A program made the position numbers and the translations under genes. Below the pieces are notes generated by a model. That model had not been told where the DNA came from, searched no databases, and was given only the letters and a program-made list of their open reading frames with translations. A stretch of DNA of 64,000 nucleotides from Clostridia bacterium (lineage in GTDB: Bacteria; Bacillota; Clostridia; Oscillospirales; CAG-272): NCBI GenBank assembly GCA_017483305.1, contig JAFULC010000044.1:127866-191865 (forward strand). The letters run 5' to 3'. Below are positions 43,989 through 63,526 of this stretch, piece by piece; position 1 is the stretch's first letter, and the number at the start of each line of letters is the position of its first letter.

Positions 43989-44160
43989 AAATCCGTCCTT
44001 ACGGACGGGATAAATCCCACTAACGTGGGATGAAATCACATCGTGATGAAATCCCGCTTCGCGGGGAGAGAGGACGGATTTAATTTCATCTGAAGCCACA
44101 GGCTGAAGATTTCATCCGAACGGAGTGAGGATTTCATCGTGCGCAGCGCGATTTCATTTT
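43989..44160. repeat. Mirror-symmetric motif/hairpin array A: GAT(G/A)AAATC x3 forward, then GATTTCAT(C/T) x4 reverse, interleaved with unrelated short GC-rich hairpins
   Basis: Forward copies at 44009-16, 44029-37 and 44045-53. Reverse copies at 44083-90, 44108-16, 44130-38 and 44150-58. Intervening hairpins include CCGTCC-ttac-GGACGG, CCCAC-taac-GTGGG, CCCGC-ttc-GCGGG and ATCGTGC-gca-GCGCGAT. Confidence 0.8.
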
Positions 44161-44196
44161 CGTTACACGCCTTCGGCGCAATTTACCGCGAAACGG

Positions 44197-44225
44197 TTGA
44201 AATGTCCACGGATTTGTGCTATAAT
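44197..44225 (+). promoter_or_regulatory. Sigma-A promoter (TTGAAA-17-TATAAT), left copy of the island-bracketing promoter/leader module
   Basis: TTGAAAtgtccacggatttgtgcTATAAT. About 85 percent identical to 63474-63502. Confidence 0.75.
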
Positions 44226-44248
44226 GGGGAAAAGAAAGGGGCGAGAAT

Positions 44249-44689
44249 ATGCAAATACTTGAAGGAACAGAATATTTAGCAATTAAGGAATTGTTCGTTG
44301 AGCAATTTGTTGATCAGAGCTCAAGCTTCTATGTAGAACGCATCAAGAATAAACACCGTTTTTCGGACGGACTATTTCAAACGGGATATTTTTGGGATTG
44401 CTTGAAAAAATACAATCGAAAGACCGAAAAATATTGTATCGACGTATTATCAAGCAAGCATGAATTTTATGTCATATGGGACATTTTGAGTTCGGAGCAT
44501 ATACGCATACCGAATTATTATAAATATCCGACGGAGTCCTGTTTGAAACTTTCGTTCCAAGAGTATTTAGAAAAGTCGGATACTTTTCCCGAAGATATTT
44601 ATTTCTTTGACGATACTTTGTCTTGGTGCGTTATTCTAACACACGAAGATAATGGAAAAAGAAGATATTGCCTATCGATTGGATGTTAA
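44249..44689 (+). CDS. Hypothetical cytoplasmic protein (146 aa)
   Basis: RBS AAAGGGG. Motifs are FYVIWDILSSEHI and PEDIYFFDDTLSWCVILTHED. It resembles small immunity-type DUF proteins, but no confident family was recognised. Confidence 0.6.
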   Translation: MQILEGTEYLAIKELFVEQFVDQSSSFYVERIKNKHRFSDGLFQTGYFWDCLKKYNRKTEKYCIDVLSSKHEFYVIWDILSSEHIRIPNYYKYPTESCLKLSFQEYLEKSDTFPEDIYFFDDTLSWCVILTHEDNGKRRYCLSIGC

Positions 44690-45018
44690 GCGAAATACTT
44701 ACATAGCTTCGTTTCCAAGCATGGCGTTGCACCCCGGAAGATAGCGGTCAAGTGCAACTCCCATCATCGCCAAGGGATAAATCTGCCCTCACGGCAAAAA
44801 TCATGGACTGTTTTTGTACGATAGACTTATATGGATCTGTTTTGTAGTGGTATCACAAACCAAAAGGGATGGCAATCGTCTCTGCATTCTTAGCGGAGAA
44901 ATAGACGGCGGAAGTACCGAGTGTAATAAACGCCGTGTGGCTCAAAACGTTCAGAATCACCGCAAAAAGAAGAAAATCGCCGCATTACAGACGAAGGGCG
45001 TGGCGGCCGAATAAAGAA

Positions 45019-45067
45019 AATAGGCACCGAGCGAGAAATCCCTCTCGCACGGTGCCTATTCTTTTTT
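45019..45067 (+). terminator. Strong nested-hairpin terminator ending an apparently non-coding 330-nt stretch
   Basis: AATAGGCACCG-[GCGAG..CTCGC]-CGGTGCCTATT followed by CTTTTTT. Confidence 0.7.
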
Positions 45068-45178
45068 AGCAAACTCAGAAAGTATTAGAATCTTCTTGAA
45101 CAAGATAAAATTATCGTCAAGTACATCAACTTCTTGCGAAAGTTGGCTAAATTTTATTCAAATTATCTATAAAATCTA

Positions 45179-45233
45179 TTGTAATTTATATAATTATGTG
45201 CTATAATGATAATTGCAAGAACTTATTCTTGCA
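45179..45233 (+). promoter_or_regulatory. Promoter (TTGTAA-17-TATAAT) of the XRE gene plus inverted repeat TGCAAGAA-ctta-TTCTTGCA at the predicted transcription start
   Basis: -35 at 45179-84 and -10 at 45202-07, with the IR at 45214-45233. Confidence 0.65.
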
Positions 45234-45297
45234 CGATAAACAGAAAAATTATGACTATGAATGTTTAAGTCTTTCAAAAAGAGGGAGAGCATCAGCA

Positions 45298-45513
45298 ATG
45301 AAAATCAGTTACAATAAGCTTTGGAAAGTACTCGTGGATAAGAAAATGAGCAAAGCGGATCTTAGACGAGCAACAGAGATGGCTTCCAACACGATGACAA
45401 GCCTAAGACGTGACAAAAAAGTTTCACTCGACGTCTTGCTTCGTATCTGTGAGGCTCTCGATTGTGACATTGGTGATATAATGAGCGTTTATAAAGAGGA
45501 ACAGAACGCATAA
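45298..45513 (+). CDS. XRE-family helix-turn-helix transcriptional regulator (71 aa)
   Basis: MKISYNKLWKVLVDKKMSKADLRRATEMASNTMTSLRRDKKVSLDVLLRICEALDCDIGDIM is a typical short Cro/C1 HTH. GAGGGAGAG RBS. The track's start at 45196 is rejected. Confidence 0.85.
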   Translation: MKISYNKLWKVLVDKKMSKADLRRATEMASNTMTSLRRDKKVSLDVLLRICEALDCDIGDIMSVYKEEQNA

Positions 45514-45573
45514 CACAAGGACGAAAAAAGCCGTCCTTTGAAGCAATAATCTACTTCAGCAGACGGCGTGAAA

Positions 45574-45765
45574 TTATGAATTGGTATCGGTAGGATCGGA
45601 GTCGCTATCGGATATGTTCTCAAGTGCGTATTCCAAGCACTGAACAACGATCTTATTCATAGACGTGTTGTATTTTCCTGCAAGCATCTCGAGCTGTTCA
45701 ACGATGTGTACGGGAATACGGAACGTTTTGTTTACTGATTCAAAGCCTTTTTCAAATTCTAACAT
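45574..45765 (-). CDS. Ribbon-helix-helix (CopG/Arc-like) DNA-binding protein with acidic tail (63 aa)
   Basis: The beta strand FRIPVHIV is followed by helices EQLEMLAGKYNTSMNKIVVQCLEYAL. Confidence 0.6.
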   Translation of the reverse strand: MLEFEKGFESVNKTFRIPVHIVEQLEMLAGKYNTSMNKIVVQCLEYALENISDSDSDPTDTNS

Positions 45766-45840
45766 AATTGCACCTCACTATATACACTATTATGCACTAA
45801 AAATCGCCAAAAATAAATAAGCAAAATATATTCACTTATT

Positions 45841-45859
45841 CTTGCAAAGCGATTGCAAG
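45841..45859. promoter_or_regulatory. Perfect palindrome CTTGCAA-agcga-TTGCAAG in the divergent RHH / operon-1 control region
   Basis: Each arm is a -35-like TTGCAA facing outward. Plus strand reads TTGCAA(45853-58)-17-TATATT(45876-81). It shares the 13-mer ACTTATTCTTGCA with 45221-45233. Confidence 0.6.
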
Positions 45860-45886
45860 CGCATAGATATTATTATATATTAAAAT

Positions 45887-45930
45887 GTCGCTGTAAAAGC
45901 GACCACAATAGGCGAAAAATGTTAGATAAT
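45887..45930 (+). promoter_or_regulatory. GTCGC-N7-GCGAC palindrome exactly 21 nt upstream of a GATAAT hexamer (copy 1)
   Basis: GTCGCtgtaaaaGCGAC at 45887-45903 and GATAAT at 45925-45930. Same architecture at 56274-56317. Confidence 0.55.
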
Positions 45931-45972
45931 TAGAATGAAAATAATACAACCTGATAAAAAGCGGAGGGACGA

Positions 45973-48048
45973 ATGATGGCTGATAAGAAATATAGCGTTA
46001 TTTTAGAAAAGGTTGGCAATCAGCCCCTGATGACTACCAAGATATTATGTGGAGAGTTAGAGCTTGGACTCGCTAAGGCGAAAGGTCTGGTGGACAAGGT
46101 TCCGTCTACCATTGCGACCGATCTTGAAAGCGCAAAGGCTCTTGAACTGAAGAAAAAGCTTGAAGATGCTGGAAATACTGTGTCTATCCCCGGCTTGAAG
46201 ATTGAAGCCGAGCCCACTGCTAAAAAGAATGTGAAGTCGTCAGCGGTATCATCGGACGACGCCTTTGCTGCTATCTTTGGCGGTAGCACAACACCGAAGA
46301 CTACTACTGTCAAAAAGCAAAGCACATCAGGTACGACACCTAAAACAACCGCGGCAAAGGCAGAGCCGAAGAAAACTACGAGCAAAGCCCCGGCTTCCTC
46401 GAGTGATTCCTTTGATTCACTTTTCGGCGGTGCTGCTCCCCAAAAAGAGACAAAAACGCAGCCTAAAGCATCTGTGGCGAAGACTATGCGCAAGGAATAC
46501 AGCAATGGTAGCTACGAAGGTGAGATGAAGGACGGCGAGCCCCACGGATTCGGCACGTACCGTTGGAATGACGGCGACATTTACACAGGTGAGTACGTAA
46601 ACGGCACTCGTCATGGAAAGGGCAAGTTTGTTTTCGCAAGCGGTAACTATTACGATGGCGAATGGGCCAATGGAAAATATCACGGTCATGGCATTTTCCG
46701 TTGGAGCGACGGAGACGAATTTGACGGCGAATGGCAAAATGGCCAGCGCCACGGCAAAGGCAAATGGACATATTCCGACGGCAGATATTATACGGGCGTT
46801 TGGGAAAACGGTGAGAGTATTAGTTCTTCTTCAATCGTATATCCCTCAACCTCAAATGCCACGACTGCAACAAAAACTGCCCCGAAAGCTACAACCACCA
46901 AGGGTCGAATTCAATACGAACACAGCTATTACGAAGGTGACCTCGTGGATGGAATTCAGCACGGCAAAGGCGTGTACGTTTGGGATAACGGAACAAGATA
47001 CGAGGGAGATTTCTTTGAAGGAAATATAACGGGTCGCGGTATTTGTTATTACACAAACGGCAATCGCTTCGAGGGCTGTTGGAAGAATGGCATAAGGAAC
47101 GGTGATGGCACATTTTACGAATATGACGCAGGCATCAAACAGTTTCGTTACAAACACGTAGGCGTATGGTCGAATGGCAAGCGCGAGGGCGTTTTTGAAT
47201 GTTATCTTTATGACGAGGACGATGCGTCTAAGCTGCGCTCTTACGATTTCTATAAAAACGACGAAATGAAGATAGCTTATATGGTGCGTGCATTGTACGA
47301 AAAAGGGATCACCACCAAGGAGGGCGTGCTGCGTTATCACGAGGAGCAGACCTCGCACAGATCGAAAAGAGCCACGCCATCTGTCTCTACCCGATCATCA
47401 AGTTCTAAAGACTATGCACTGGATTGCGCCGACAAAGCAATGCAAGCGTATACCAACAGAGACTATTTCCGAGCGGCTTATTACTTGTATCAATGCGGTA
47501 GTAGTGGAAGCACGTTTTATCGTGACGTAGCAGAAAGATGCTATCATCCCTCGGGTGCTACGGGATATTCGTACGTAGAAAACATCTTAACCGGAGATAG
47601 CTTGGGTAACGTTTCCGACGATGAAATCAATATTTGCGCATTCGTTCTTGACAAATTTGTTCCGAAAGGCACTAAGAACAGCAAAACGTATCGCGCTTGG
47701 TGCTATTATAGATCGGGAGATGTTAAGAAGGCTGCCGGGATGATACCGAATAGGGGCTTGATGTTCTACGACGGAAGGATACAAGACATAAACGAAATCA
47801 TGGGCGGAAAACCGCTTTCCAAAATCACCCCGTATAGCGATGAGATTATGGCAAACCTGCTTATATGTAAATTATGGGCGAAGTTAGATATGGAGCACGA
47901 TTGGGTAAGCCAGCTTCGCAGAAACGAGCATCTCAAGGAGAAGCTTTTGCTTGCGGAAGCATATATAAAATTTGCCAAAAAGGAAAGATGGCAATATGAA
48001 GTTGCCGAGATTGAAAAGGATATGCTCACATTTAAGGCGGCGCTGTGA
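45973..48048 (+). CDS. Ribosomal L7/L12 C-terminal-domain homologue fused to two MORN-repeat blocks and a ~270-aa helical C-terminal domain
   Basis: 691 aa. KYSVILEKVGNQPLMTTKILCGELELGLAKAKGLVDKVPSTIATDLESAKALELKKKLEDAGNTVSI aligns with the L12 CTD consensus (FDVIL..aG.kKI.vIK.VR.iTGLGLKEAKdLVd.aP..v...vsKeeAe.iKkkLEeaGA.V). Thr/Lys-rich linkers. MORN repeats such as YEGEMKDGEPHGFGTYRWNDGDIYTGEYVNGTRHGKGKF. The ATG at 45976 is an alternative start. Confidence 0.8.
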   Translation: MMADKKYSVILEKVGNQPLMTTKILCGELELGLAKAKGLVDKVPSTIATDLESAKALELKKKLEDAGNTVSIPGLKIEAEPTAKKNVKSSAVSSDDAFAAIFGGSTTPKTTTVKKQSTSGTTPKTTAAKAEPKKTTSKAPASSSDSFDSLFGGAAPQKETKTQPKASVAKTMRKEYSNGSYEGEMKDGEPHGFGTYRWNDGDIYTGEYVNGTRHGKGKFVFASGNYYDGEWANGKYHGHGIFRWSDGDEFDGEWQNGQRHGKGKWTYSDGRYYTGVWENGESISSSSIVYPSTSNATTATKTAPKATTTKGRIQYEHSYYEGDLVDGIQHGKGVYVWDNGTRYEGDFFEGNITGRGICYYTNGNRFEGCWKNGIRNGDGTFYEYDAGIKQFRYKHVGVWSNGKREGVFECYLYDEDDASKLRSYDFYKNDEMKIAYMVRALYEKGITTKEGVLRYHEEQTSHRSKRATPSVSTRSSSSKDYALDCADKAMQAYTNRDYFRAAYYLYQCGSSGSTFYRDVAERCYHPSGATGYSYVENILTGDSLGNVSDDEINICAFVLDKFVPKGTKNSKTYRAWCYYRSGDVKKAAGMIPNRGLMFYDGRIQDINEIMGGKPLSKITPYSDEIMANLLICKLWAKLDMEHDWVSQLRRNEHLKEKLLLAEAYIKFAKKERWQYEVAEIEKDMLTFKAAL

Positions 48049-48076
48049 TAGCTTTGATACGGCAGAAGGAGAAATT

Positions 48077-49981
48077 ATGAACGGTGAAGTAATATTATCA
48101 ATATGCGCGATACTGACACTGCTGATTTTCGCAGTGGGTGTGGCGCTCGTCATACTGAATAGAAAGGATCTCAAGCGCGTGGTGCGCGTTCTCGGTGTGT
48201 GCGTCTTTCTGATGCTGATGTCGGGAATCTATCCGTATTATCACGAGGAAACCTATGCCATTGGTCTGACACTGGTTGAGAGTATGTGCGCGATGCTGTT
48301 AAACTCCAATCCCGGAGAGATCCTTGCGGGATTTAACGGCTTTGATGTGGCGTATCTCGGTATTTATAAAACAGCACTCCTCGTGCTCTTAATTATCGCA
48401 CCGCTTTTCACCGTTGGTATTACCTTGTCCTTCTTCTCGGAAAAGTTCACAAGAATAATTTACCGTATCCGCTCGGAGTTCAGCGATTCTTATTTGTTTT
48501 CGGCAATCAACGAGCGTACCCTGTGTATCGCCGAGGACGTTGCCGAAACCGACAGAAAGGCAGTTATCGTTTTTGCCCTGCGCATTTCCGAGGATGATAT
48601 CGATGCAGAATCACTTGCTCGCATTAAGGACATAGGCGCATATATAATAAGCGATGACGTATCGCAGCTGAAGCATAGTCTGCGTCGCACGCGCAATTAT
48701 TACCTTCTTGATACCAACAATAGCGAAAATCTTGAAGCAGGACTGCGAATATACCAAAAGTACAACAAAGAGCATACCGATAAGGTAAATATGTGGATCT
48801 ACACAAAAAATGAGATCACGGAGGTTATCTTCGACTACCTATACGAGACCTTCAACGTCAGACTTATCAATGAGGAAGGACTGATTGCAAGAACTCTTGC
48901 TACCGATTACCCCGTCTTTGACGCGGTTAAGGACGGAAGACTTTCAATATTGATTGTGGGTGGTGGTCATATCGGGCTTGAAATCCTTCGCACTATGACT
49001 ATGTGCTCCTGTCTTGGAGATGACGTTGACGTTGACATCAACGTAATAGACTTGAACGGAGAAAAATCGAGAGATATATTTGAAAAAGACTCCCCCGGTC
49101 TTGCAGATAAATGGAAGGTTAAATTCCATAGCGCAGACGTAAAATCTGTTGCTCTTGCAAAAGTACTTGAAGGCTTAGACCCCTCGTATATCGTGATCTG
49201 CCTTGGCAATGAAACACTTAATATGGAAACCGCAATTTATATTCGCCGTAAATACGGCATCGAGAACGGTCTGCCCCTCATTCACACCCTCGTGGATCAT
49301 AAGAGCATTGACGAGCAGATCATTCCGAATCTTTGCGTTTCGGATTGGAAGTACAATACAGAACACCGAAGATTTGAAAGTACGCCTATTTGCTCATTTG
49401 AAATCAAGACCTTCGGCAGCTACGAGGATACCTACAAGGGACTTCGCATCGGTGCATCCTATCGGGACTGTCTCGCTGTTGCGGTGAACGCCGCTAACCG
49501 CGGTATTACGGCGGTGGATAGTCAAAACAACGCCGAGTGGCTTACCGATCTGTACAACCAGGTTGATTTTTACAAGGATTATTCCGACGCCTTTGCAGTA
49601 TCCATTCCCTATAAGCTGTGGCTTCTCGGTCTTGAGCTTGTTGATGACGGAGACGGAGAGGTTTCGGATCTGGAAAACCTTCTCGAAGCTAATATAGACA
49701 GACTTCGCAGGAACGAAAACAAACGCTATGAAGCTTTTATGCGCAGTAAAGGGTGGACACAGATGATGCCGAGCGAGGTCAGAGACGGAAGAATGGGCAA
49801 TAAGCTTCAAAAGAAGCACGCAAGAATTGATCCGCAGTATACCAAGGAGCTTGAAGAGATGACAGGACGGGATTTTTCTAAGGAGGACGTTCGTTCCATT
49901 ATGAACCTTCCCACCGTGATCCGCATTGCAAATGCTCTTTACGGCAGAAATTATTCTGTCAGAAAAAACAAGATTAAATAA
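48077..49981 (+). CDS. Membrane protein: 4-5 N-terminal TM helices, Rossmann/TrkA-N-like region(s) and a C-terminal RyR-like domain
   Basis: GAAGGAG RBS lies before ATG 48077. LSILIVGGGHIGLEILR is a GxGxxG motif. The C-terminal NENKRYEAFMRSKGWTQ...KKHARIDPQYTKELEEMTGRDFSKEDV resembles bacterial RyR domains (weak). Confidence 0.6.
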   Translation: MNGEVILSICAILTLLIFAVGVALVILNRKDLKRVVRVLGVCVFLMLMSGIYPYYHEETYAIGLTLVESMCAMLLNSNPGEILAGFNGFDVAYLGIYKTALLVLLIIAPLFTVGITLSFFSEKFTRIIYRIRSEFSDSYLFSAINERTLCIAEDVAETDRKAVIVFALRISEDDIDAESLARIKDIGAYIISDDVSQLKHSLRRTRNYYLLDTNNSENLEAGLRIYQKYNKEHTDKVNMWIYTKNEITEVIFDYLYETFNVRLINEEGLIARTLATDYPVFDAVKDGRLSILIVGGGHIGLEILRTMTMCSCLGDDVDVDINVIDLNGEKSRDIFEKDSPGLADKWKVKFHSADVKSVALAKVLEGLDPSYIVICLGNETLNMETAIYIRRKYGIENGLPLIHTLVDHKSIDEQIIPNLCVSDWKYNTEHRRFESTPICSFEIKTFGSYEDTYKGLRIGASYRDCLAVAVNAANRGITAVDSQNNAEWLTDLYNQVDFYKDYSDAFAVSIPYKLWLLGLELVDDGDGEVSDLENLLEANIDRLRRNENKRYEAFMRSKGWTQMMPSEVRDGRMGNKLQKKHARIDPQYTKELEEMTGRDFSKEDVRSIMNLPTVIRIANALYGRNYSVRKNKIK

Positions 49982-50006
49982 AATATAAAAAAGCGAGGAA
50001 ATGATA

Positions 50007-50633
50007 ATGGATATTATTAATGGGGTTAGAGAACTTTGTAAGGGCGAAAACGGTTTCGTAAATATGTTTGACAAGGCAAAAAGCGGCGGTAAGCTTGGAC
50101 AACTCACTGACGGCGACCGAGAAGCTGACCTTTTTGAAACGCTTCTTTACGGCAGCGCAAGAGAGACTCTCGTCGAAATGATAAACGATGCCTACAATTT
50201 CAAGCAATATGCGGTAGAGGCACACGGCTTGCTTGTGGAAGACGGTCTTGATGCTATGGATGCCAAGAGAGCGCTTGAGATATTCTTTATAGCATTTGGC
50301 TTCCCCGGATACAGAACTATGGGAGCACAGGAAACCATCGTTGACGAGAGCGGAAACTCTAAAACTGTGTATGAGGGTGAGGTAAAGAACGGCAAGCCTC
50401 ACGGATGCGGTTCGCGCAACTTCTATTACGAAGGAAAATGGTCTGCTCTTGACGAATGTGTATGGATTGACGGTATAATGATTGGCTATGATTATGCCAA
50501 AGAGCTCGAATTCGACGCATTTGAAGATCAGAAAATTGGCTTCGTTATTAACGATCGCTTCGTAGGAAATATAAGAATTATTGCAAGTGACGGCGAGGAA
50601 TTCGACGACGGCGGTACAAAGTTTACCGTTTAA
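50007..50633 (+). CDS. Hypothetical protein with a short MORN-like segment
   Basis: YEGEVKNGKPHGCGSRNFYYEGKW. GAGGAA RBS favours ATG 50007 over 50001. The antisense ORF 49974-50639 is rejected. Confidence 0.6.
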   Translation: MDIINGVRELCKGENGFVNMFDKAKSGGKLGQLTDGDREADLFETLLYGSARETLVEMINDAYNFKQYAVEAHGLLVEDGLDAMDAKRALEIFFIAFGFPGYRTMGAQETIVDESGNSKTVYEGEVKNGKPHGCGSRNFYYEGKWSALDECVWIDGIMIGYDYAKELEFDAFEDQKIGFVINDRFVGNIRIIASDGEEFDDGGTKFTV

Positions 50634-50666
50634 AATCACACATTACTTATGCTTTAAGGAGTTATT

Positions 50667-51065
50667 GTGAGCAATTTAAAATGCTTGAAAAAGGCAAATG
50701 AGGGTGACACCGAGGCTATGCGCATTGGTGAGAAGCTCTATAATTTGCAGGATGCGACCGAGGATGAGGTAGAGGCAGGTACGCTTTGCCTTAACAAATG
50801 GTATGTAGAGCGCAAATATAAAACTCAGGTATGCGAGCCCGGTCGTTCAAGTCCTTATTACGATATGAGAAGCGAAATGCAGGAGCTCTCTTTTGAAGAA
50901 TTGATCTTCAATGGAGGAGAATGCATTGGAGCATACCACGACGAGCTGGTTTTCCTGTTCGACGATGAAAAAACTCATTATCATCAAAAGTATCTTGGTG
51001 AAATGAAGATCAGCTACGACCAAGGAATCGATTTCTACGACTATTACTATCTGCACATCAGATGA
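50667..51065 (+). CDS. Hypothetical protein (132 aa), GTG start
   Basis: AAGGAG lies 5 nt before GTG 50667. The N-terminal KKANEGDTEAM resembles a Sel1 half-repeat. Confidence 0.5.
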   Translation: MSNLKCLKKANEGDTEAMRIGEKLYNLQDATEDEVEAGTLCLNKWYVERKYKTQVCEPGRSSPYYDMRSEMQELSFEELIFNGGECIGAYHDELVFLFDDEKTHYHQKYLGEMKISYDQGIDFYDYYYLHIR

Positions 51066-56965: not shown

Positions 56966-56977
56966 AGGAGGCTTATT

Positions 56978-57181
56978 ATGGCTGAAAAATTAAAATGCCC
57001 ATACTGCGGTAGCGAAAACCTAACCCGTATGGACGGCAGCGGAACTCTAAAGAAATACGGCAACGACGTTATGATCGATATCGCTCCCGACATCGTTTAC
57101 TGTAACGATTGCAAAAAGGATTTCAGAGCACCGTTCTTTGACGATCTGACGCTCGACGAGGCGATTTTAGATCAAGAGTGA
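56978..57181 (+). CDS. Zinc-ribbon mini-protein (67 aa)
   Basis: CPYCGS...CNDCKK, with RBS AAAGGAGG. Confidence 0.6.
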   Translation: MAEKLKCPYCGSENLTRMDGSGTLKKYGNDVMIDIAPDIVYCNDCKKDFRAPFFDDLTLDEAILDQE

Positions 57182-57191
57182 GGTGATTACG

Positions 57192-57473
57192 ATGAAATTA
57201 AAAATCATTGATTATTTCTGGGCAGTTGGACACAGGACGAAAAGAAAGGGCTCTCACAAAATTCCCCTTGCCGAAGGCGAGTTGCGTGAAATTAACTATG
57301 TGCAGTTCAGAATTGACAAGGTGGAAAAGGATAAGGCGCAGATTTCGGTTATCCGTCGTGACGGAACGGTTATAAAGGAAATCACCGTAGAAAAAGGCCG
57401 ACGTTCCTACTACCATCCAAGGTCTATGGATGCAGGACACGAATATACACTGAAGCTTACAAAATTTTTCTAA
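57192..57473 (+). CDS. Small beta-module protein (93 aa), member of the island's recurrent mini-domain set
   Basis: VQFRIDKVEKDKAQISVIRRDGTVIKEITVEKGRRSYY, with RBS GAGGTG. Confidence 0.55.
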   Translation: MKLKIIDYFWAVGHRTKRKGSHKIPLAEGELREINYVQFRIDKVEKDKAQISVIRRDGTVIKEITVEKGRRSYYHPRSMDAGHEYTLKLTKFF

Positions 57474-57492
57474 ACATAAAAGGAGAAAAATC

Positions 57493-57720
57493 ATGGATAA
57501 GAAGGAATTTAAGAATTTACTTGCAAAAGCTGAAGGCGGCGATGCGGAAGCAATGTATCTTGTAGGACTTGAGTATGAAGCAGGTGAGGTCGTTACAGCC
57601 GACGGCGAAAAGGCTATCGAATGGATGAATAAGGCTGCCGACCTTGGACATAAGGAGGCGCTTGATTGGCTCAAGCAGTATTACTTTGATGATGATGCCG
57701 GCACACAGGCTTATTCTTAA
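57493..57720 (+). CDS. Sel1-repeat protein (75 aa)
   Basis: AEGGDAEAMYLVGLEYEAGEVVTADGEKAIEWMNKAADLGHKEA. Confidence 0.75.
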   Translation: MDKKEFKNLLAKAEGGDAEAMYLVGLEYEAGEVVTADGEKAIEWMNKAADLGHKEALDWLKQYYFDDDAGTQAYS

Positions 57721-57735
57721 CAGGAGGTGAATGCC

Positions 57736-57999
57736 ATGGAGAGAGAAAAAGCTCGCTGTACAAAATGCGGTGCCTTTGAAGTGGTATTCGTGGATCGAAG
57801 CGCCAATCCATTCAATACCAAGCCCCCAAGATTCGTTTGTCAGAAATGCGGTTGCGAATACGAGCTTGATTCGGGCATCGGCGTAATGAATCGCAATACG
57901 ATAAATCCCTTCCCATGCCCCGAGCGTGACCTTGACATTGACGATCCGTTTACAGCAGAGATGAAAGAAAGGATCAAGTCAATGAGAAAAACCGATTAA
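57736..57999 (+). CDS. Zinc-ribbon mini-protein (87 aa)
   Basis: CTKCGA...CQKCGC. AGGAGG lies 8 nt before ATG 57736. Confidence 0.6.
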   Translation: MEREKARCTKCGAFEVVFVDRSANPFNTKPPRFVCQKCGCEYELDSGIGVMNRNTINPFPCPERDLDIDDPFTAEMKERIKSMRKTD

Positions 58000-58017
58000 G
58001 CATAGGAGGAAGAAGAT

Positions 58018-58596
58018 ATGTCAAGAGAATTTGATTATGCAATGGAGCTGAAAAAGAACAGCAACGTCGAAGAAGCAAAGGCTTATTTTGAAAAAGCTGC
58101 GCAGGGTGGCGAGCCCGAGGCATATATGGAGCTTGCAAGGCTTGCAGTTCCCGAGGCGGGTGAGCATTATTACAACTATTCAAAGCTTGACGTAACCCTG
58201 CTGCCTCTGGGCTATCACAAAACTGAATTTGAATATTATCTCAAGGCGAGTGAGCTCGGTCACACAAGAGCCATGGTTTACGTCGGAATTGCCTATAAGC
58301 AAGGATATCTCGTAAACCGTGACTACGATATGGCATTTAATTATTTTGCAAAGGCGACTGAATTAGGTGACGATTATCTCGCTCCCTACTATCTTGCCGA
58401 ATGCTATGAAAATGCGCTCGGCACCGAGATGGACGAAAACGCAGCGGTGCTTTACTACACAATGTGCGCCGAGCACGGTAACATCCCTGCAATGCTTGCT
58501 CTTGCAAGAATTTATAAAGAGGGTCTTGGTAGTATTGAAAAGGATGAACAAAAATCAACAAGATACTTCTTTATGAGTGGTATTGGAAGAAATTGA
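58018..58596 (+). CDS. Sel1-repeat protein (192 aa)
   Basis: AAQGGEPEAYMELARL, ASELGHTRAMVYVGIAYKQG, ATELGDDYLAPYYLAECYENALG and CAEHGNIPAMLALARIYKEGLG. Confidence 0.8.
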   Translation: MSREFDYAMELKKNSNVEEAKAYFEKAAQGGEPEAYMELARLAVPEAGEHYYNYSKLDVTLLPLGYHKTEFEYYLKASELGHTRAMVYVGIAYKQGYLVNRDYDMAFNYFAKATELGDDYLAPYYLAECYENALGTEMDENAAVLYYTMCAEHGNIPAMLALARIYKEGLGSIEKDEQKSTRYFFMSGIGRN

Positions 58597-58661
58597 TATC
58601 AGCTATCAGTATAAAAACATAATTATTACAAGGTTTTGAAATCTTTAGAGGAGAATGTGTG

Positions 58662-59786
58662 ATGAAAGAGGAAATCAAAAATCAAATCCTCGGTTTGTCG
58701 ATATATAACGCGCGTACCGAAAAAGAGGACATCGTATGGATTGCAAAAGAGCTTTGCGAAAAGTACGGTTGGAGAACCGATGATATGATATATACACGCA
58801 CTGGTTTCGATCCGGTCGAGCACCGTCAGTACAGCGAGGTCGTTCGTGATGAACGCAAGGCTTGGAATTACACTGTTGATGCGGCGCTTGAGGAAAAGGA
58901 CGTTTATGCCATCGCAACTCTGCTGTTTTTCAAGAAATACGGCACGATTGACGAGACTGCTTTCTATGTAACCAAGGAGTCGCTTTTGAGGGATATAGTA
59001 GAAATACTTGAAAGCATCGAGGAAAAGGACGCATTTGTTTATTTCCTTATCGGCAAAGCGAATTTCATAGCGCGCGGAGTAGAATATGACTTTGATAAAG
59101 CGCACGAGTGCTTCCTTTTGGCGGCTGACGGCGGTATTGAGATTGCAAAACTGTTTGCCCTCGAGATCGAAGACGATTTTGAGGGAATCTTCAAGGAAGC
59201 GAGTAAGTTGATTGAGAAGTATCCCGATAGTCACATTATTAAGTTCTACCTCGCATTCTGCTGTTATTACGGTTACGGAACCGAGAAGAATTATGAAAGG
59301 GTAGTAGAGCTCGTCAAATATACCGAAACAATAGAAAACTATAACGACGATCCCATAGATTACTATTTTCTTTCAAGCAGATATTTGCTTGGACTTTGCT
59401 ACTTCCACGGCTATGGTGTGGAGAAAAATCTCAGCCGAGCGGAGCTGCTGTTCAGATATTCTGCCAGCGCAGGCACTCCCGAAGCGTATTACTGCCAGGC
59501 AATAACCAAACTTTTATCGGATGACAGTAAACATACGGGGTATATATACGATCTTTTGAAGAAAAGCGCGTACGGTTATTATCTCCCGGCGATCAGAAAG
59601 TTTATGCTTTGTCTCCGAAAGGGCTACGGCACCACACCCGACAAGGAGCAGTATGTTGCATTCTCGGACTATTATGATCACTACAAAGAAACTCAAAAAA
59701 ACACCTCTGATCTTGGAGTTGAAGCGGATCATTGCAATCTTATCGATCACGAAAACAACATCATCGAGGACGATGAAATAGACTAA
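58662..59786 (+). CDS. Sel1/TPR-like repeat protein (374 aa)
   Basis: AADGGIEIAKLF, YYGYGTEKNYERVVEL, LGLCYFHGYGVEKNLSRAELLFRYSASAGTPEAYY. The antisense ORF 58626-59234 is rejected. Confidence 0.7.
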   Translation: MKEEIKNQILGLSIYNARTEKEDIVWIAKELCEKYGWRTDDMIYTRTGFDPVEHRQYSEVVRDERKAWNYTVDAALEEKDVYAIATLLFFKKYGTIDETAFYVTKESLLRDIVEILESIEEKDAFVYFLIGKANFIARGVEYDFDKAHECFLLAADGGIEIAKLFALEIEDDFEGIFKEASKLIEKYPDSHIIKFYLAFCCYYGYGTEKNYERVVELVKYTETIENYNDDPIDYYFLSSRYLLGLCYFHGYGVEKNLSRAELLFRYSASAGTPEAYYCQAITKLLSDDSKHTGYIYDLLKKSAYGYYLPAIRKFMLCLRKGYGTTPDKEQYVAFSDYYDHYKETQKNTSDLGVEADHCNLIDHENNIIEDDEID

Positions 59787-59803
59787 ATTCAGGAGGAAAC
59801 GCT

Positions 59804-60028
59804 ATGGAGAACAAAAGAAATTACAAATACGATCCTGTCGAGGATACTTCCGAATATCTTGCAATAAAGGACGAGCTTGAGGCAAAAATCATTGAAAGAA
59901 TGGGCGGCGAAATGACAAGAGGTAACGCACATCTGTACACCACTCTCAAAAAGGAAATTTTGAAGAAGGATTACGGCATTGATTGGAAGTCGCCTCAGGA
60001 GTTAAATCCGAGGATAAAATTTAACTGA
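59804..60028 (+). CDS. Hypothetical protein (74 aa)
   Basis: AGGAGG RBS, helical and charged. No family. Confidence 0.5.
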   Translation: MENKRNYKYDPVEDTSEYLAIKDELEAKIIERMGGEMTRGNAHLYTTLKKEILKKDYGIDWKSPQELNPRIKFN

Positions 60029-60029
60029 T

Positions 60030-60320
60030 ATGAAATTAACGTATAAGTATACCGTGCACGGCTTCTCCGGCGGTATGATGCTCTCTAACACCGTATACGG
60101 CGAATGGGATTTTAATTCGTTTGAGGTCGGTTCACAGCTCGAGAGCGTAAACACCGAAGTGAAAATAACCGTGCTTGAAAAGAATAGCGACAGCGTAACT
60201 ATAAAGGTCGCGTATCGTAAAAATGAAAAAACGATGACCGTTTCCACCGTGAGTGAGGAATGGTTTAAGGATGATGCCAACGCTTACGGATTTGCCTTTG
60301 CGTTTACCGTGAAGGAGTAA
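60030..60320 (+). CDS. Small beta-module protein (96 aa)
   Basis: The start lies 1 nt after the upstream stop. EVKITVLEKNSDSVTIKVAYRKNEKTMTVS. Confidence 0.5.
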   Translation: MKLTYKYTVHGFSGGMMLSNTVYGEWDFNSFEVGSQLESVNTEVKITVLEKNSDSVTIKVAYRKNEKTMTVSTVSEEWFKDDANAYGFAFAFTVKE

Positions 60321-60334
60321 GGAGGTGTAGAGGA

Positions 60335-61402
60335 ATGATCAAAAAAATCAGCACGGAGTATCCTCATATTGACGCATATCGAGATGTGAAGCCCGAAATT
60401 GATGCTGCAATAAAAAAGGTTAAGTTTTTGCTTGGCTACCAAAAAACCTATTTTGCAGTTCAAAGGGATCTGAGAGTGGCTTTGCGCCGTATGACTAATG
60501 ATGCGCTTATTGAAAAAATGCAAGCGGAGAAAAACACGGCTTTTCTTGATGAAATCAGAAGATCAACACCTCATAAGGCTACCATAGAAAAGCTGATTGG
60601 GGACATAGACGTCTTTGAAGCGGAAAACAAAAAGCTCCTCTCTGCAATTATTAAAAACGGTAAGCTTGACAGCAAAGAATTTGCCGTAATCTATCCGTAT
60701 CTTTACACGCTTGCCGAGGACAACACCTCGCACGATAGAATTTCCCCCGAGCTCATACTGTTCTTTGCTGAAAACACGAAGGAAAAATGCTATCTTTCAT
60801 CCGTAGATGAATACGCAATTTTTTACTATCTGCTCATTAAGATAAAGGCTAAAGGCAGATATGGATTTGCATATCCTCACTTGGCTGATGAGCTTGTCTC
60901 GTGTATTGAGAACTCGGCGAATATGCCAATGAAGAGCCGTATGGAATTTTATCTTGAGGCAGGCGATTATTACTTAAAATCTTGTCAAAGAGATAAAGCA
61001 ATGTCTTGCTATAAAAAAGCAGCTCTCACCGCCAAGGAAAGTGGCGACGTTGAAGGCTCGGCATATGCTATGCAAAAGTATTACAGAGTGAATCAGAGCT
61101 TTCCCGAACCAATGCAGATAAAACCCAACGTGGAAGAAATTCAAGCGGAATACGGAAAATACTCTCCGATTGTATTGCAAGGTATAACCGCTCCCACGTT
61201 CAAGGTAGATCCTATTGAATTTACCGAAAACTTTGCTGAAAAATACCAAGCGGTTATGTGGAAGGTTGAAGCGGAAATCGATAAGACCAGAGATCTTAAT
61301 TCGGTTTATCAACGCTGGAACCTGATGGAAAAATATTTTGCTGAAATAAATACTCCGTGGAGATGCCCTAAGGCTATGAATCCCGGTATGATGTTTGACT
61401 GA
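60335..61402 (+). CDS. Hypothetical helical (TPR-like) protein (355 aa)
   Basis: YLEAGDYYLKSCQRDKAMSCYKKAALTAKESGDVEGSAYAMQKYY. Confidence 0.55.
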   Translation: MIKKISTEYPHIDAYRDVKPEIDAAIKKVKFLLGYQKTYFAVQRDLRVALRRMTNDALIEKMQAEKNTAFLDEIRRSTPHKATIEKLIGDIDVFEAENKKLLSAIIKNGKLDSKEFAVIYPYLYTLAEDNTSHDRISPELILFFAENTKEKCYLSSVDEYAIFYYLLIKIKAKGRYGFAYPHLADELVSCIENSANMPMKSRMEFYLEAGDYYLKSCQRDKAMSCYKKAALTAKESGDVEGSAYAMQKYYRVNQSFPEPMQIKPNVEEIQAEYGKYSPIVLQGITAPTFKVDPIEFTENFAEKYQAVMWKVEAEIDKTRDLNSVYQRWNLMEKYFAEINTPWRCPKAMNPGMMFD

Positions 61403-61409
61403 GGTGAAT

Positions 61410-61763
61410 ATGGAAAAAATCAGAGTAAGCGTATATTGGGAAGTAGGAAAAGATGAAGCCGGAAATCAGCTTATCAGCTATTTAAGAGATGACCTTGCCG
61501 AAATCAAGCTCGGTGTCCTCGATAAAGAAGAGGATATTGGGGTGGAAATCATCGAAATTTCCAATGATGAGATCACCGTTAAGGCAGACGGCAAGAAATA
61601 TCCCCTCAAGAAAGGCGAACGTGTGGAGTTTGATTGCTGGACGGGCTACTACGGCGATAGTAGCGATAACCAATATTTCTTCATCATCTCTTGGGAGGAT
61701 GAAGCGATAAGCAATTACACCGAAACTATGCTGGATCTAAAAAAAGATTACATAAAGAATTAA
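61410..61763 (+). CDS. Small beta-module protein (117 aa)
   Basis: GVEIIEISNDEITVKADGKKYPLKKGERVEFDCW...YFFIISW. RBS GAGGTG. The track's TTG at 61395 is rejected. Confidence 0.55.
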   Translation: MEKIRVSVYWEVGKDEAGNQLISYLRDDLAEIKLGVLDKEEDIGVEIIEISNDEITVKADGKKYPLKKGERVEFDCWTGYYGDSSDNQYFFIISWEDEAISNYTETMLDLKKDYIKN

Positions 61764-61776
61764 GGAGAAGCGCGAA

Positions 61777-62667
61777 ATGGAAGATAAAAAGTTTTTAAGA
61801 GTAACAGGTAAACGAGTAGAAAAGAACGGAAATATCGTAGCTGAGGCAACGGCAGTTGTGCCATATATTAAGGGTGGCGCAGCCAAGCTGCCCGACGTGG
61901 CTCCCTTTAACACAAACGTATGGCTCTGCGGCGACGATGGATTCAATATGAAGTGGATCGAATATACCAGCACCGGTAAGATTGCATATTTTTACGACAA
62001 GTATTACGACCTTGTTGACGGAAAAGCGCACGCAGAGTGCGAGATCAAGGGCGATAATATGATTTTCGACTTTGAGCTTATCGACCTTCGCAAAAACGCT
62101 GATTACGCAATCGCAATGAAGGTTAGAAAGGTAGAGCCCGGTGAAAAGATCGACGAGGGCTGTAGCAAGTTCTTCGGCAGTCCCTGTCTCCCCACGGCAG
62201 ATGATCCATATCCCGATGACGGTGTGTTCTTTGCACAAATTAGATGTGAGGATCTCAAGGATCTTGATCCCGACAACAGACTTCCTCACGAGGGATATCT
62301 TTACTTCTTCCTTGATGCCGAGATGTATCCCTCCGATGACCTTTATATGATGGTTAAGCATACCCTTGAAGAGCCTAAGTATATTCTTGACGATTACAAC
62401 GAGGAGTGTAACATCAAGGGTTTAACCGATACCTACGTTATTACCTTTGAAAAGGTTGATGCAGGATATAGCGGAACAAAGCTCCTCGGCTATCCGAGCA
62501 ACGACGTTGACGATAACGGAGACAGGGGCGGTCTGCTTCTTCAGTACGATCCGCTTGATTTTGACGTACCCTTCCTTTCAACCTGTGACGGATACGCATT
62601 CGTATTCTTTGGTGACAGCGAGGAAAACAAGTTCTCCGGCGCAGATTACGTTGTCTGGGGATCTTAA
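61777..62667 (+). CDS. DUF1963 / YwqG-family protein with ~130-aa N-terminal extension
   Basis: SKFFGSPCLP...FFAQIRCEDL...LPHEGYLYFFLDAEM...KLLGYPS...LLLQYDPLD...GYAFVFF. Confidence 0.75.
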   Translation: MEDKKFLRVTGKRVEKNGNIVAEATAVVPYIKGGAAKLPDVAPFNTNVWLCGDDGFNMKWIEYTSTGKIAYFYDKYYDLVDGKAHAECEIKGDNMIFDFELIDLRKNADYAIAMKVRKVEPGEKIDEGCSKFFGSPCLPTADDPYPDDGVFFAQIRCEDLKDLDPDNRLPHEGYLYFFLDAEMYPSDDLYMMVKHTLEEPKYILDDYNEECNIKGLTDTYVITFEKVDAGYSGTKLLGYPSNDVDDNGDRGGLLLQYDPLDFDVPFLSTCDGYAFVFFGDSEENKFSGADYVVWGS

Positions 62668-62838
62668 ATTCTCTACGCATTTATCTCAAAAATGGTGTTA
62701 TATTAATAAGCTTAGGAAAAAATTATGTCAATTTATTTTAGCAACGCTGGGGCATCTTTGTAAACGGTGAATATCAGCCCGATATGACTTGGGAAGAATT
62801 CTTTGATGCATACAGCGATGTAAAAAAGGTTTAAAGAT

Positions 62839-63195
62839 ATGAATGTAAAGCCGATTATTCACGTTCACTACATTAACGACGACTATAAATCATGGAATCC
62901 TCCACGTGAAGCTAACTTTGAAAAGTATTTATTGGCAACTCCCGGAAGAATTTTTGAAAGTTGCGGAGGATTTGATCCGTTGGACGTGCTTTCCGTTTCC
63001 TCTGACGAGATTGTTATTAGGTTGGATGAAAAAACAAAATCACTCCACCCCGGCGAAACTATTACTATGCACTATGAGTTGCCGGGACTGATCGCTGACG
63101 GCAGCGGATTTGAGTATTTCACCTTAACCGTCCACTGGCTTACAGAAGAGGAAGCGAAATCAGTCGTCGCCGAGCCGATGGGAAAACAAGGATAA
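62839..63195 (+). CDS. Small beta-module protein (118 aa)
   Basis: DVLSVSSDEIVIRLDEKTKSLHPGETITMHYE...YFTLTVHW, the same pattern as 61410-61763. Confidence 0.55.
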   Translation: MNVKPIIHVHYINDDYKSWNPPREANFEKYLLATPGRIFESCGGFDPLDVLSVSSDEIVIRLDEKTKSLHPGETITMHYELPGLIADGSGFEYFTLTVHWLTEEEAKSVVAEPMGKQG

Positions 63196-63253
63196 AATGC
63201 ACCATTTCCGATTTCGGCAGTTCATTGTATTAACGAATGGGTTATTACACAAG

Positions 63254-63288
63254 AAAAAAGCCAAGTCGAATTTCGACTTGGCTTTTTT
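63254..63288 (+). terminator. Terminator closing the island's second operon
   Basis: AAAAAAGCCAAGTCGAA-TTTCGACTTGGCTTTTTT. Confidence 0.9.
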
Positions 63289-63290
63289 CA

Positions 63291-63473
63291 GTGAAATTCG
63301 TTCCTGCGGAACGAGTGAAATACGCTGGCGCGTGTGAAATTGCCTGCGGCAGTGAAATACGCCTACGGCGTGTGAAGGAACGAATTTTATTTCACATTGC
63401 GACCAACGGGAGCAATATTTCACCATTTCCGCAAGGAAATTATTTCACATTCGGCGCAAGCCGAATATTTCAC
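63291..63473. repeat. Mirror-symmetric motif/hairpin array B: GTGAAAT x4 (+1 degenerate) forward, then ATTTCAC x4 reverse, interleaved with unrelated short hairpins
   Basis: Forward copies at 63291, 63315, 63334 and 63352, with a degenerate one at 63372. Reverse copies at 63389, 63417, 63442 and 63467. Hairpins include TCGTTCC-tgc-GGAACGA, ACGCC-tac-GGCGT, ATTTCC-gcaa-GGAAAT and ATTCGGC-gcaa-GCCGAAT. Confidence 0.8.
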
Positions 63474-63502
63474 TTGAAATGTTCACAGATTTGTGATATA
63501 AT
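63474..63502 (+). promoter_or_regulatory. Sigma-A promoter (TTGAAA-17-TATAAT), right copy of the island-bracketing promoter/leader module
   Basis: TTGAAAtgttcacagatttgtgaTATAAT. Confidence 0.75.
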
Positions 63503-63526
63503 GAAGCCAAGAAAGGCGGGAACAGA

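Follow-up and report, generated by a model that had tools for sequence, protein, structure and literature searches.

A tRNA-Trp-adjacent accessory gene array belonging to a mosaic locus family of gut Oscillospiraceae

We examined a 64,000-nt stretch of DNA (the window, in whose positions all coordinates are given) from a Clostridia bacterium of the Oscillospirales lineage CAG-272 (assembly GCA_017483305.1), focusing on the 19-kb island of small, tightly packed genes that follows its tRNA-Trp gene. The region is a true accessory island, adjoining the tRNA, atypical in composition, and absent from the corresponding slot of close relatives, and it is one member of a locus family that recurs in gut Oscillospiraceae. 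Its protein families (Sel1, MORN, LRR_5, DUF1963/TYPP, Zn-ribbons, NPCBM lipoprotein, and beta modules) reappear at other sites in ruminant and human gut members of this family, the array is a recombination mosaic, and the genes compared are under purifying selection. We tentatively read the island as an accessory, recombination-shuffled, operon-like array of diversifying binder or neutralizer proteins that may be used in conflict, in a polyimmunity- or decoy-like manner. We found this locus type described nowhere in the searchable literature.

The island and its borders

Accessory status was assessed in the same slot of sister species, which are uncultured Oscillospiraceae/Clostridia metagenome-assembled genomes (MAGs) from goat and sheep with flanking proteins 80-93% identical to those of the window. 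Synteny of tRNA-Trp, GNAT, AP-endonuclease, and GH38 is kept in four sister species (loci within L008-L012; L numbers denote the loci compared). DUF5722 and F420-ligase are also kept in the three loci that reach far enough (L008, L010, and L012), and NAD synthase in two. Between these flanks the sister species carry unrelated cargo of no more than 2-4.7 kb (a transmembrane protein; a four-helix-bundle protein; pyruvate formate-lyase plus activase; an APH-like kinase), with no island protein among it, and the region is therefore a true accessory island. The initial annotation had suggested aligning relatives to locate breakpoints at the tRNA-Trp, with a shared gene order and host-typical composition in all of them as the outcome that would speak against an island; neither was found.

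Composition also sets the island apart, as its reported AT-richness had suggested: GC is 0.442, compared with 0.485-0.491 in the rest of the window, and GC at third codon positions is about 0.49 (0.42-0.58), compared with about 0.61 elsewhere (0.54-0.66). The source is a 103.7-kb metagenome contig (ERZ28018951), and identical proteins occur in the same order in several other samples; the gene calls match those on public contigs with identical proteins. We count 24 credible genes on the plus strand (44249-63195) and one on the minus strand (45574-45765). The initial count of about 26 open reading frames (ORFs), all but one on the plus strand, thus holds for the strand layout but includes two that are probably not genes: 44814-45014 has a TTG start and is called on no public contig, and 63237-63530 coincides with a Gut-1 RNA element with terminator and promoter. 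The main run has a single orientation with mostly -4 to 65 nt between genes. An ATGA overlap is real at 55764, whereas the one claimed at 51211 is a 145-nt gap from the previous gene; the gaps from 56965 to 61777, given initially as 1-20 nt, measure 1-19 nt except for one of 65 nt. Most products are small and acidic, with an isoelectric point (pI) of 4-5.

The left edge is formed by tRNA-Trp(cca), the single tRNA of the window according to ARAGORN and Rfam and indeed as solitary as first described. Two diverged modules of terminator, Gut-1 RNA, and promoter, about 60% identical and not made of tRNA sequence, bracket the island (Table 1). Gut metagenomes are the known source of Gut-1 RNA, a motif whose function is unknown. 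In Rfam the right-hand copy scores 56.4 bits, above the 50-bit gathering score of RF01706, and the left-hand copy 47 bits (E 2e-8), just under it. The small-hairpin array that scores as Gut-1 RNA after the tRNA-Trp terminator spans roughly 200 nt, a second weak Gut-1-like copy lies at 44104-44165 on the minus strand, and the left-border promoter is a near-consensus extended -10. Orthologous modules follow tRNA-Trp in L008 (Gut-1 at 9112-9183) and L012 (4093-4162), relatives that carry one module only; of the two island copies, the right-hand one is closer to the L008 variant and the left-hand one to that of L012. Gut-1 RNA (RF01706) directly after tRNA-Trp and its terminator, followed by a strong promoter, is a feature of this Oscillospiraceae clade. 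We rejected the view that the promoters on either side form a repeat diagnostic of a mobile element: their motif is simply the consensus for strong extended -10 promoters in this clade, and the only true flanking repeat is the Gut-1 hairpin array. To the right, the PQQ_2-like gene and an NT5C/guanylate-kinase gene past the window complete a variable slot of about 22 kb, after which the contig continues with the core genes DUF5722, F420-ligase, and NAD synthase.

The best promoters lie only at the head of the array, and no strong plus-strand terminator was found from 46 kb to the hairpin at 63253, a layout consistent with one long transcript from the promoter at 45853 to that hairpin. In the promoter scan the HTH gene and the 146-aa gene have promoters of their own, apart from the main-operon promoter; the 146-aa gene stands apart from the main operon, with a hairpin downstream of it at 45013-45066. 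The 23-nt hairpin beside the main promoter has a second copy, 96% identical, at 56270-56292. Each copy (AAATGTCGCyGTAAAAGCGACCA) separates a regulator gene, immediately before it, from the block of genes that follows, and may serve as an operator or in RNA processing. We rejected the hairpin as a conserved operator of the locus family, since it was found only in same-strain contigs.

As the initial annotation had reported, no integrase, transposase, phage, toxin, or secretion family was found in the island with Pfam, PADLOC, PHROGs, or NCBIfam, and no defense family either. Pfam was run on all ORFs (down to E 5 for unmatched ones, yielding only noise), PADLOC-DB 2.0 on 20 of the 24 island ORFs (all but 56978-57181, 57493-57720, 58018-58596, and 62839-63195), and PHROGs and NCBIfam on ten, namely the L12/MORN fusion and those proteins that lacked annotation. 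The sole PADLOC match is a marginal HTH_VI hit (E 0.005) for the HTH regulator, Pfam finds no SUKH/SMI1_KNR4, SuFu, or Imm family among the island ORFs, and about 12 island proteins could be placed in no family of Pfam, NCBIfam, PHROGs, or PADLOC, even with permissive thresholds. An integrase or cognate toxin just outside the window, which had been named as grounds for reclassifying the island, did not turn up: no mobility, toxin, secretion, phage, or defense family was seen in the 10 kb past the window end, and no integrase or recombinase lies between tRNA-Trp and DUF5722. No att-like direct repeat of the tRNA 3' end was found at the distal border, and no conjugation gene. The tRNA adjacency, composition, and absence from relatives fit an integrative element, while integrase and tRNA repeat are missing.

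A conserved head and a variable tail across related arrays

Related contexts were compared by tblastn (Table 2). From these loci, it follows that the set of families recurs while order, content, and genomic site vary, a recurrence that the initial annotation had not foreseen. Arrays often share a head composed of an HTH regulator, a protein resembling the C-terminal domain (CTD) of ribosomal protein L12, and a membrane protein with tandem RCK domains, which we call the anchor; anchors are 48-88% identical between arrays. In the window the head also includes the divergent RHH regulator, and most of the head is kept in related arrays. The remainder, or tail, is hypervariable; in the island it consists mostly of small acidic proteins without obvious signal peptide, built on protein-binding scaffolds, plus one NPCBM lipoprotein.

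Comparison of the window with its closest counterpart, L020, gave dN/dS of 0.06-0.24 in eight ortholog pairs, the exception being the HTH gene, in which dS is saturated; the genes are therefore functional and under purifying selection. Neighboring genes nevertheless differ widely in dS between the two arrays, from 0.30 to more than 2, and the array is therefore a recombination mosaic. Exchange is also visible within one human-gut species (L029-L040), in which flanking and core array genes are 93-99% identical. There, divergent sequence (68% identity or less) takes the place of the MORN gene upstream of the anchor, one Sel1 cassette occurs in some loci and not in others, and a Zn-ribbon/transmembrane gene is replaced.

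The first gene of the conserved head is the HTH_26 regulator, whose homologues (72-76% identical) open the arrays of L020 and L038. Also in the head is the fusion that the initial annotation had described as L12-CTD-MORN, which Pfam supports with 131 bits for MORN (six repeats) and 41 bits for Ribosomal_L12 (residues 8-72); the linker carries two docking-type DxxFxxhFGG motifs, and the L12-CTD-like part spans 45973-46450. The N-terminal L10-binding/dimerization domain is absent and TIGR00855 reaches 32 bits against a cutoff of 84.4. Only the CTD matches, and sequence comparison identifies the domain as an L12-CTD paralog and not a ribosomal stalk protein. The L12-CTD-like family comprises at least 179 clusters; its members are mostly standalone proteins of about 153 aa, with the CTD and a disordered tail bearing two DxxFDxhFG motifs, and fusion to a MORN protein is seen in this strain. 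One homologue is named "ribosomal protein L7/L12" by NCBI despite the absent stalk-binding N-domain. Equal contig sizes suggest that L12-CTD-like and anchor homologues share contigs.

The anchor is the most conserved gene of the locus family, with more than 130 homologue clusters (90% identity level) that are 41-94% identical and uniform in length. All named homologues come from uncultured Oscillospiraceae, Ruminococcaceae, Clostridia, or Clostridiales MAGs, and one cluster holds 1166 member sequences from human guts. A profile search extended the family to 2282 clusters at 50% identity (E up to 1e-3; 378 at E up to 1e-30), most of them 600-680 aa. The AlphaFold2 model (pLDDT 89, 47 homologues in the alignment) has five N-terminal helices, which are taken to be transmembrane from their hydrophobic sequence, and a cytoplasmic part that is nearest in Foldseek to the RCK gating rings of GsuK (4gx1), TrkA (4j9v), and Slo1 (E 2.6e-6 to 1e-5), at only 10-14% sequence identity. 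Like these proteins, the anchor has two tandem RCK/Rossmann domains; it differs from them in an extra C-terminal helical domain and in the lack of a recognizable K+ pore. No K+ selectivity filter is present and no TrkH-type partner or K+ channel pore is recognizable; the conserved APLFTVGIT segment lies in the last helix of the N-terminal membrane region, with FTVGIT modeled at low confidence. The anchor has no Pfam match (E up to 5) and no PDB sequence match with the 47-sequence profile. Of the earlier designation as a transmembrane-Rossmann-RyR-like protein, the Rossmann part survives as the two RCK domains and the transmembrane part as a prediction from hydrophobicity, but the RyR part finds no support, with no match to PF02026 at E up to 5.

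In the tail, most of the initially named families were recovered. Pfam recognizes three Sel1 proteins (three to five had been proposed), of which the 192-aa and 374-aa proteins score 66 and 41 bits and have 35-38% homologues in all arrays, as well as the BspA-type LRR_5 protein, in which no signal peptide is obvious by eye. Both DUF1963/YwqG proteins exceed the PF09234 cutoff. They are 31% identical to each other, and the 207-aa copy shows a weak match to YwqG 1PV5 and has 44-62% orthologues in L029-L040 and L044. Pfam also recognizes NPCBM in the 745-aa protein, and self-alignment supports its four NPCBM-like repeats (z 7-19 between neighbors); orthologues occur in L020 (70%) and L027 (68%), and this putative lipoprotein is the sole predicted exported product of the array. 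The two Zn-ribbon mini-proteins, by contrast, give only matches below Pfam cutoffs; the pair of Zn-ribbon and 93-aa module is kept in L044. Of the three HTH/RHH regulators claimed, HTH_26 is solid, whereas the calls are weak for both the RHH protein (E about 0.05) and the HTH-like protein of 156 aa (E 0.04). The 156-aa gene overlaps the LRR gene, is followed by the hairpin copy at 56270-56292, and has 55-57% orthologues in L027 and, beside HTH_26, in L038.

The five small beta modules fared less well. The 118-aa module was modeled and is all-beta, without significant structural neighbor in PDB or BFVD (Foldseek), and it is homologous to the 117-aa module (hhalign, E 3.4e-5); in L027 it forms a fusion with DUF1963, and in L044 it likewise ends the array. 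We rejected the five as one paralog set, since hhalign detects a relation only between these two. Among the remaining proteins, the 210/132-aa pair has orthologues in L020 (78%) and in L022 (67%), in the latter immediately behind the anchor. The two halves of the 239-aa protein align with each other (z 13.6) and mark it as an internal duplication; genes like it come after the anchor in both L020 and L026. Around the motif ...W+xPxxxNPxxxF[DN], the 74-aa protein weakly matches the C-terminal end of the 355-aa protein (E 0.089), and homologues of the 74-aa domain occur in L020, L022, and L027. PDB sequence searches with the 146-, 239-, 355-, and 745-aa proteins gave no match.

Table 1. Features of the island and its borders, in window positions
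Feature	Position	Strand	Evidence or remarks
tRNA-Trp(cca), conserved left edge of variable slot	43872-43947	+	ARAGORN; Rfam 59.6 bits
Left border module	43949-44225	+	Terminator hairpin 43949-43984; Gut-1-like hairpin array 43984-44057; strong promoter 44197-44225
146-aa protein, no family	44249-44689	+	Pfam negative; most AT-rich gene, GC 0.35
Cro/C1-type HTH regulator (HTH_26), 71 aa	45298-45513	+	Pfam 73 bits; promoter 45179-45207
63-aa RHH (Arc/CopG-like) protein	45574-45765	-	Weak Arc match, E 0.047; divergent from main operon
Promoter-like site and 23-nt hairpin AAATGTCGCTGTAAAAGCGACCA	45853-45905	+	Promoter 45853-45881; hairpin 45883-45905
691-aa fusion: L7/L12 CTD, linker, 6 MORN, helical C-terminal domain	45973-48048	+	Pfam
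634-aa anchor: N-terminal hydrophobic helices, two tandem RCK (Rossmann), helical C-terminal domain	48077-49981	+	AlphaFold2, Foldseek
Small acidic 210 aa (one sub-threshold MORN) and 132 aa (no family)	50001-51065	+	Pfam
745-aa putative lipoprotein (signal peptide ...FTGC), four NPCBM-like repeats	51211-53448	+	Pfam NPCBM 63 bits
239-aa and 173-aa proteins, no known family	53461-54723	+	Pfam negative
332-aa protein: N-terminal module of about 130 aa and BspA-type LRR_5	54769-55767	+	Pfam LRR_5 93 bits
156-aa HTH-like protein	55764-56234	+	Weak HTH_26, E 0.044; PHROG 4031 at C-terminus, 3.8e-6
207-aa DUF1963/TYPP (YwqG-like), pI 4.05	56342-56965	+	Pfam PF09234 98.2 bits vs cutoff 23
Zn-ribbon, 67 aa	56978-57181	+	Below Pfam cutoff
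Basic 93-aa module, pI 9.9, presumed beta	within 56978-57999	+	
Single-repeat Sel1, 75 aa	57493-57720	+	Pfam
Zn-ribbon, 87 aa	57736-57999	+	Below Pfam cutoff
Sel1, 192 aa	58018-58596	+	Pfam
Sel1, 374 aa	58662-59786	+	Pfam
74-aa protein, 96-aa presumed-beta module, 355-aa helical protein	59804-61402	+	
117-aa beta module	from 61410	+	hhalign to 118-aa module
296-aa protein: N-terminal module and DUF1963/TYPP	61777-62667	+	DUF1963 29.2 bits vs cutoff 23, N-terminal part of model only
118-aa all-beta module, last array gene	62839-63195	+	AlphaFold2 pLDDT 86, 8 strands
Right border module	63253-63502	+	Terminator hairpin 63253-63289; Gut-1 RNA 63289-63363; strong promoter 63474-63502
255-aa PQQ_2/beta-propeller-like gene, start	63527-64000	+	Beyond array

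Table 2. Gene content of related loci, in order
Locus	Anchor identity	Content
L020	88%	Ec107-like retron reverse transcriptase, HTH_26, standalone L12-CTD-like, anchor, 239-like, MORN+LRR_5, HU; then orthologues of window 210-aa, NPCBM, 239-aa, 173-aa, LRR_5, Sel1-75, and 74-aa genes at 59-87%
L022	67%	Sel1, Zn-ribbon, Sel1, DUF1963, kinase-vWA-PP2C, DUF1963, transglutaminase-like, anchor, 132-like
L027	64%	tRNA-Pro, HTH, anchor, NPCBM, 156-like, Sel1, 118-aa+DUF1963 fusion, 93-like, Sel1-518, Zn-ribbon, DUF1963, NPCBM
L029-L040 (widespread human-gut species, 12 loci)	48%	TnpV, DUF4368, and DUF6076 remnants, DUF4011 helicase; HTH_26, 156-like, Sel1, small module of unknown family, DUF1963, Sel1+MORN, anchor; two multi-pass transmembrane proteins, Sel1s, Zn-ribbons, DUF1963, kinase, vWA
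L044		Array end: Zn-ribbon, 93-like, DUF1963, 118-like, as in window
L026		Anchor and only a 239-like gene; TIR_2 gene a few genes away
L024, L046		Anchor alone among housekeeping genes; tRNA-Val adjoins in L024

The neighborhoods of these arrays deserve separate mention. In L020 an Ec107-like retron reverse transcriptase (PADLOC 8e-126), a PD-T4-6-like FHA-kinase, and an HTH-AAA_28-CYTH protein (3509-6759 and 7828-8745 of that locus) immediately precede the array, which gives it a neighborhood of defense-island type. The L038 array sits beside TnpV, a DUF4368 recombinase remnant, and a DUF4011 helicase. L022 carries a compact set of Ser/Thr kinase, vWA, and PP2C between DUF1963 genes (4576-7574, Pfam; TerY-P-like), and in L038 a kinase and a vWA protein, both identified by eye from their sequences and their likeness to the L022 arrangement, lie at the end of the available sequence (19913-21899). 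The surroundings of the lone anchors in L024 and L046 include tig-clpPX-lon/msrA and glycogen genes.

Possible functions of the array

Each tail family has several paralogs per locus, and the folds are known protein-binding ones. The tail would accordingly be a co-transcribed stockpile of stoichiometric binders, each of which would sequester or neutralize one foreign protein, whether a toxin of other bacteria or a protein of a phage, with the repertoire turning over through cassette exchange between arrays. We rank this binder reading first, ahead of a sensor-effector system, a physiological module, and decayed mobile-element cargo, in that order, and hold it only tentatively.

The closest precedent is the heterogeneous polyimmunity locus, defined by four or more tandem genes of documented or predicted immunity families (SUKH, SuFu, Imm1-73, Imm-ank, LRR) and organized in one orientation with tiny gaps, no interspersed toxins, and content that differs between strains and species (PMC3482391). 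The island shares this organization: a long, tight, same-strand tandem array (gaps -4 to 65 nt) of small diverse proteins from dense gut communities, with no toxin domain by Pfam and with varying content. It differs in its regulators and its conserved head with membrane tandem-RCK and L12-CTD-like proteins, and in having no adjacent recombinase and no known cognate toxin. The initial annotation had inferred an orphan-immunity island, and the accessory, toxin-free, polyimmunity-like organization agrees with that, but the families do not. It had further treated DUF1963/YwqG and Sel1 as established constituents of immunity loci, which the accessible literature does not bear out: LRR proteins are listed as polyimmunity-locus constituents, Sel1 only as a repeat within toxins, and DUF1963 and MORN not as immunity proteins (PMC3482391).

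Two further comparisons bear on the binder reading. The acquired interbacterial defense (AID) clusters of Bacteroidales are, like the island, accessory, strain-variable gene arrays of gut bacteria without toxins of their own, and their genes are protective (bioRxiv 10.1101/471110). AID clusters reportedly hold orphan homologues of known type VI secretion system immunity genes and are said to be tied to recombinases or mobile elements; the island differs in having neither homology to known immunity genes nor a recombinase. The DUF1963 domain is equivalent to TYPP, for which a chaperone-like role in protein-protein interaction has been proposed, with tandem copies and LRR fusions noted and no immunity role (Burroughs & Aravind 2014, PMC4275035). 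Like the TYPP operons described there, the island has several YwqG-like genes linked to LRR/peptide-binding modules; the Sel1, MORN, NPCBM, RCK, and L12-CTD-like context and a conflict role are not described in that study (PMC4275035).

Several points weigh against the binder reading. No island gene belongs to SUKH, SuFu, Imm1-73, or another documented immunity family, so that a single LRR_5 protein falls in the class listed for polyimmunity loci, and TYPP has been interpreted as a chaperone-like adaptor and not an immunity protein (PMC4275035). No toxin or secretion gene was seen in the roughly nine array or anchor contexts examined, and therefore no cognate threat has been identified. A head conserved at 48-88%, regulators, and the kinase-vWA-PP2C triad of L022 and L038 would be unexpected if immunity genes had simply been heaped together. 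In L024 and L046 the anchor also stands by itself in housekeeping surroundings, and we infer every function proposed for the array from sequence. Taken with the retron, TIR, and DUF4011 neighbors, the conserved head, regulators, and kinase-vWA-PP2C set make the locus look more like a system than a heap of orphan immunity genes. Hence, the undescribed conflict system that the initial annotation offered as its alternative stays alive.

That alternative, which comes second in our ranking but which we consider unlikely, is a sensor-effector defense system made of a regulator, an L12-CTD mimic, a membrane tandem-RCK effector, and hypervariable sensors, which would detect invader proteins and respond at the membrane. 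Sel1, MORN, LRR, and TYPP proteins, along with the beta modules, would serve as sensors or adaptors that signal to the RCK protein, which may alter ion flux or membrane integrity in an abortive-infection-like response, perhaps by way of the L12-CTD-like DxxFDxhFG motifs, and a kinase-vWA-PP2C switch would join in the fuller arrays. The head (HTH, L12-CTD-like, RCK) is indeed kept across arrays, L12-CTD-like and anchor homologues apparently sit on the same contigs, and the gene that is hypervariable within a species is the MORN gene just upstream of the anchor. Yet the anchor is part of a very large superfamily and also stands alone among housekeeping genes, and may therefore be an ordinary membrane protein. 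Its fold is that of ligand-gated channel gating rings, but a pore would be putative: the selectivity filter is missing and the FTVGIT segment is modeled at low confidence. Defense-island-type neighbors (Ec107-like retron, PD-T4-6-like kinase, TIR_2, and DUF4011 helicase) favor a system, whereas PADLOC matched none of its system models among the 20 of 24 island proteins scanned, and the island has no classical effector such as an NTPase or a nuclease.

The kinase-vWA-PP2C set enters the same argument. The TerY-P triad, consisting of vWA, PP2C phosphatase, and Ser/Thr kinase, is a candidate anti-phage system, and a module of this type lies inside the arrays of L022, as a compact kinase, vWA, and PP2C, and L038, as kinase and vWA up to the sequence end. 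The window copy differs in lacking the triad. In L022, only generic kinase models were matched and the vWA and PP2C proteins had no PADLOC match, so that membership in the TerY-P family is only a candidate assignment.

A lineage-specific physiological module with no role in conflict, for example in envelope or ion homeostasis, seems to us rather improbable. It would combine an RCK ion-transport or signaling protein with expanded scaffolds, chaperones, or regulators, and the variability would reflect relaxed, niche-specific expansion. The broad anchor family, sometimes found among core genes (tig-clpPX-lon/msrA, glycogen genes), would fit such a role, as would the chaperone-like adaptor function proposed for TYPP domains, with their tandem operon copies (PMC4275035), but the array is absent from the sister slot and moves between genome sites. 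Similarly, purifying selection on all compared genes is what a physiological role would predict, although cassettes are swapped at strain level, composition is atypical, and arrays lie repeatedly beside tRNAs, mobile-element remnants, and defense genes.

Scans of viral contigs with the anchor profile and DUF1963 found no relatives, nor did the anchor or the beta+DUF1963 protein match any plasmid by tblastn, so a phage or plasmid origin is unsupported. It is very doubtful that the island represents cargo left at a tRNA hotspot by an earlier integrative or conjugative element, now decaying and without a coherent function: such an origin would explain the tRNA adjacency, low GC, absence from relatives, and the recombinase and TnpV remnants beside the L038 array, but all reading frames are intact, identical proteins occur on contigs from several samples, dN/dS is 0.06-0.24, the same families form at least six independent arrays, and integrase, tRNA-derived att-like repeat, conjugation gene, and viral or plasmid relatives were not found.

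Other loci in the window and implications

Elsewhere in the window, three tandem paralogous genes (15017-20293, 20588-25291, and 25596-30671) encode giant secreted proteins of 1758, 1567, and 1691 aa with signal peptides, repeated modules, and only a faint Laminin_G Pfam match, adjoined by a GH39 gene. They are probably surface carbohydrate-binding or -degrading proteins; a role as polymorphic toxins was rejected, as they show signal peptides and lectin-like repeats but no toxin domain. A low-GC patch at 3000-5000 (GC 0.367) contains, between YchF/TrmB/TruB housekeeping genes and a response regulator, a 255-aa Zn-ribbon ORF on the minus strand (3389-4156) whose exact product is absent from the public gene collection. 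Two other loci are unconnected with the island: a PemK/MazF-type toxin gene with an overlapping antisense ORF at about 33.6-34.3 kb (L017, 23239-23697), and a DUF2716 gene beside the GH38 mannosidase at 39.3-39.86 kb.

Gut Clostridia are rich in uncharacterized accessory genes, and to our knowledge, most catalogued immunity and defense families come from Proteobacteria, Bacteroidota, and Bacilli. The locus family described here is common in gut Oscillospiraceae. If the arrays are not protective, the finding still sets right the notion that DUF1963 and Sel1 have been established as markers for loci of immunity genes. If they are protective, they would add unrecognized conflict families, namely DUF1963/TYPP, Sel1 mini-proteins, cytoplasmic MORN and LRR_5 proteins, beta modules, and an L12-CTD mimic, and would provide a first bacterial role for TYPP domains and for the large family of transmembrane-plus-tandem-RCK proteins without a Pfam model. 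The sensor-effector alternative, if true, would make the locus a new defense system. Should the binder reading be right, the arrays would represent the polyimmunity or acquired-defense theme played with an entirely different family repertoire and a conserved head.

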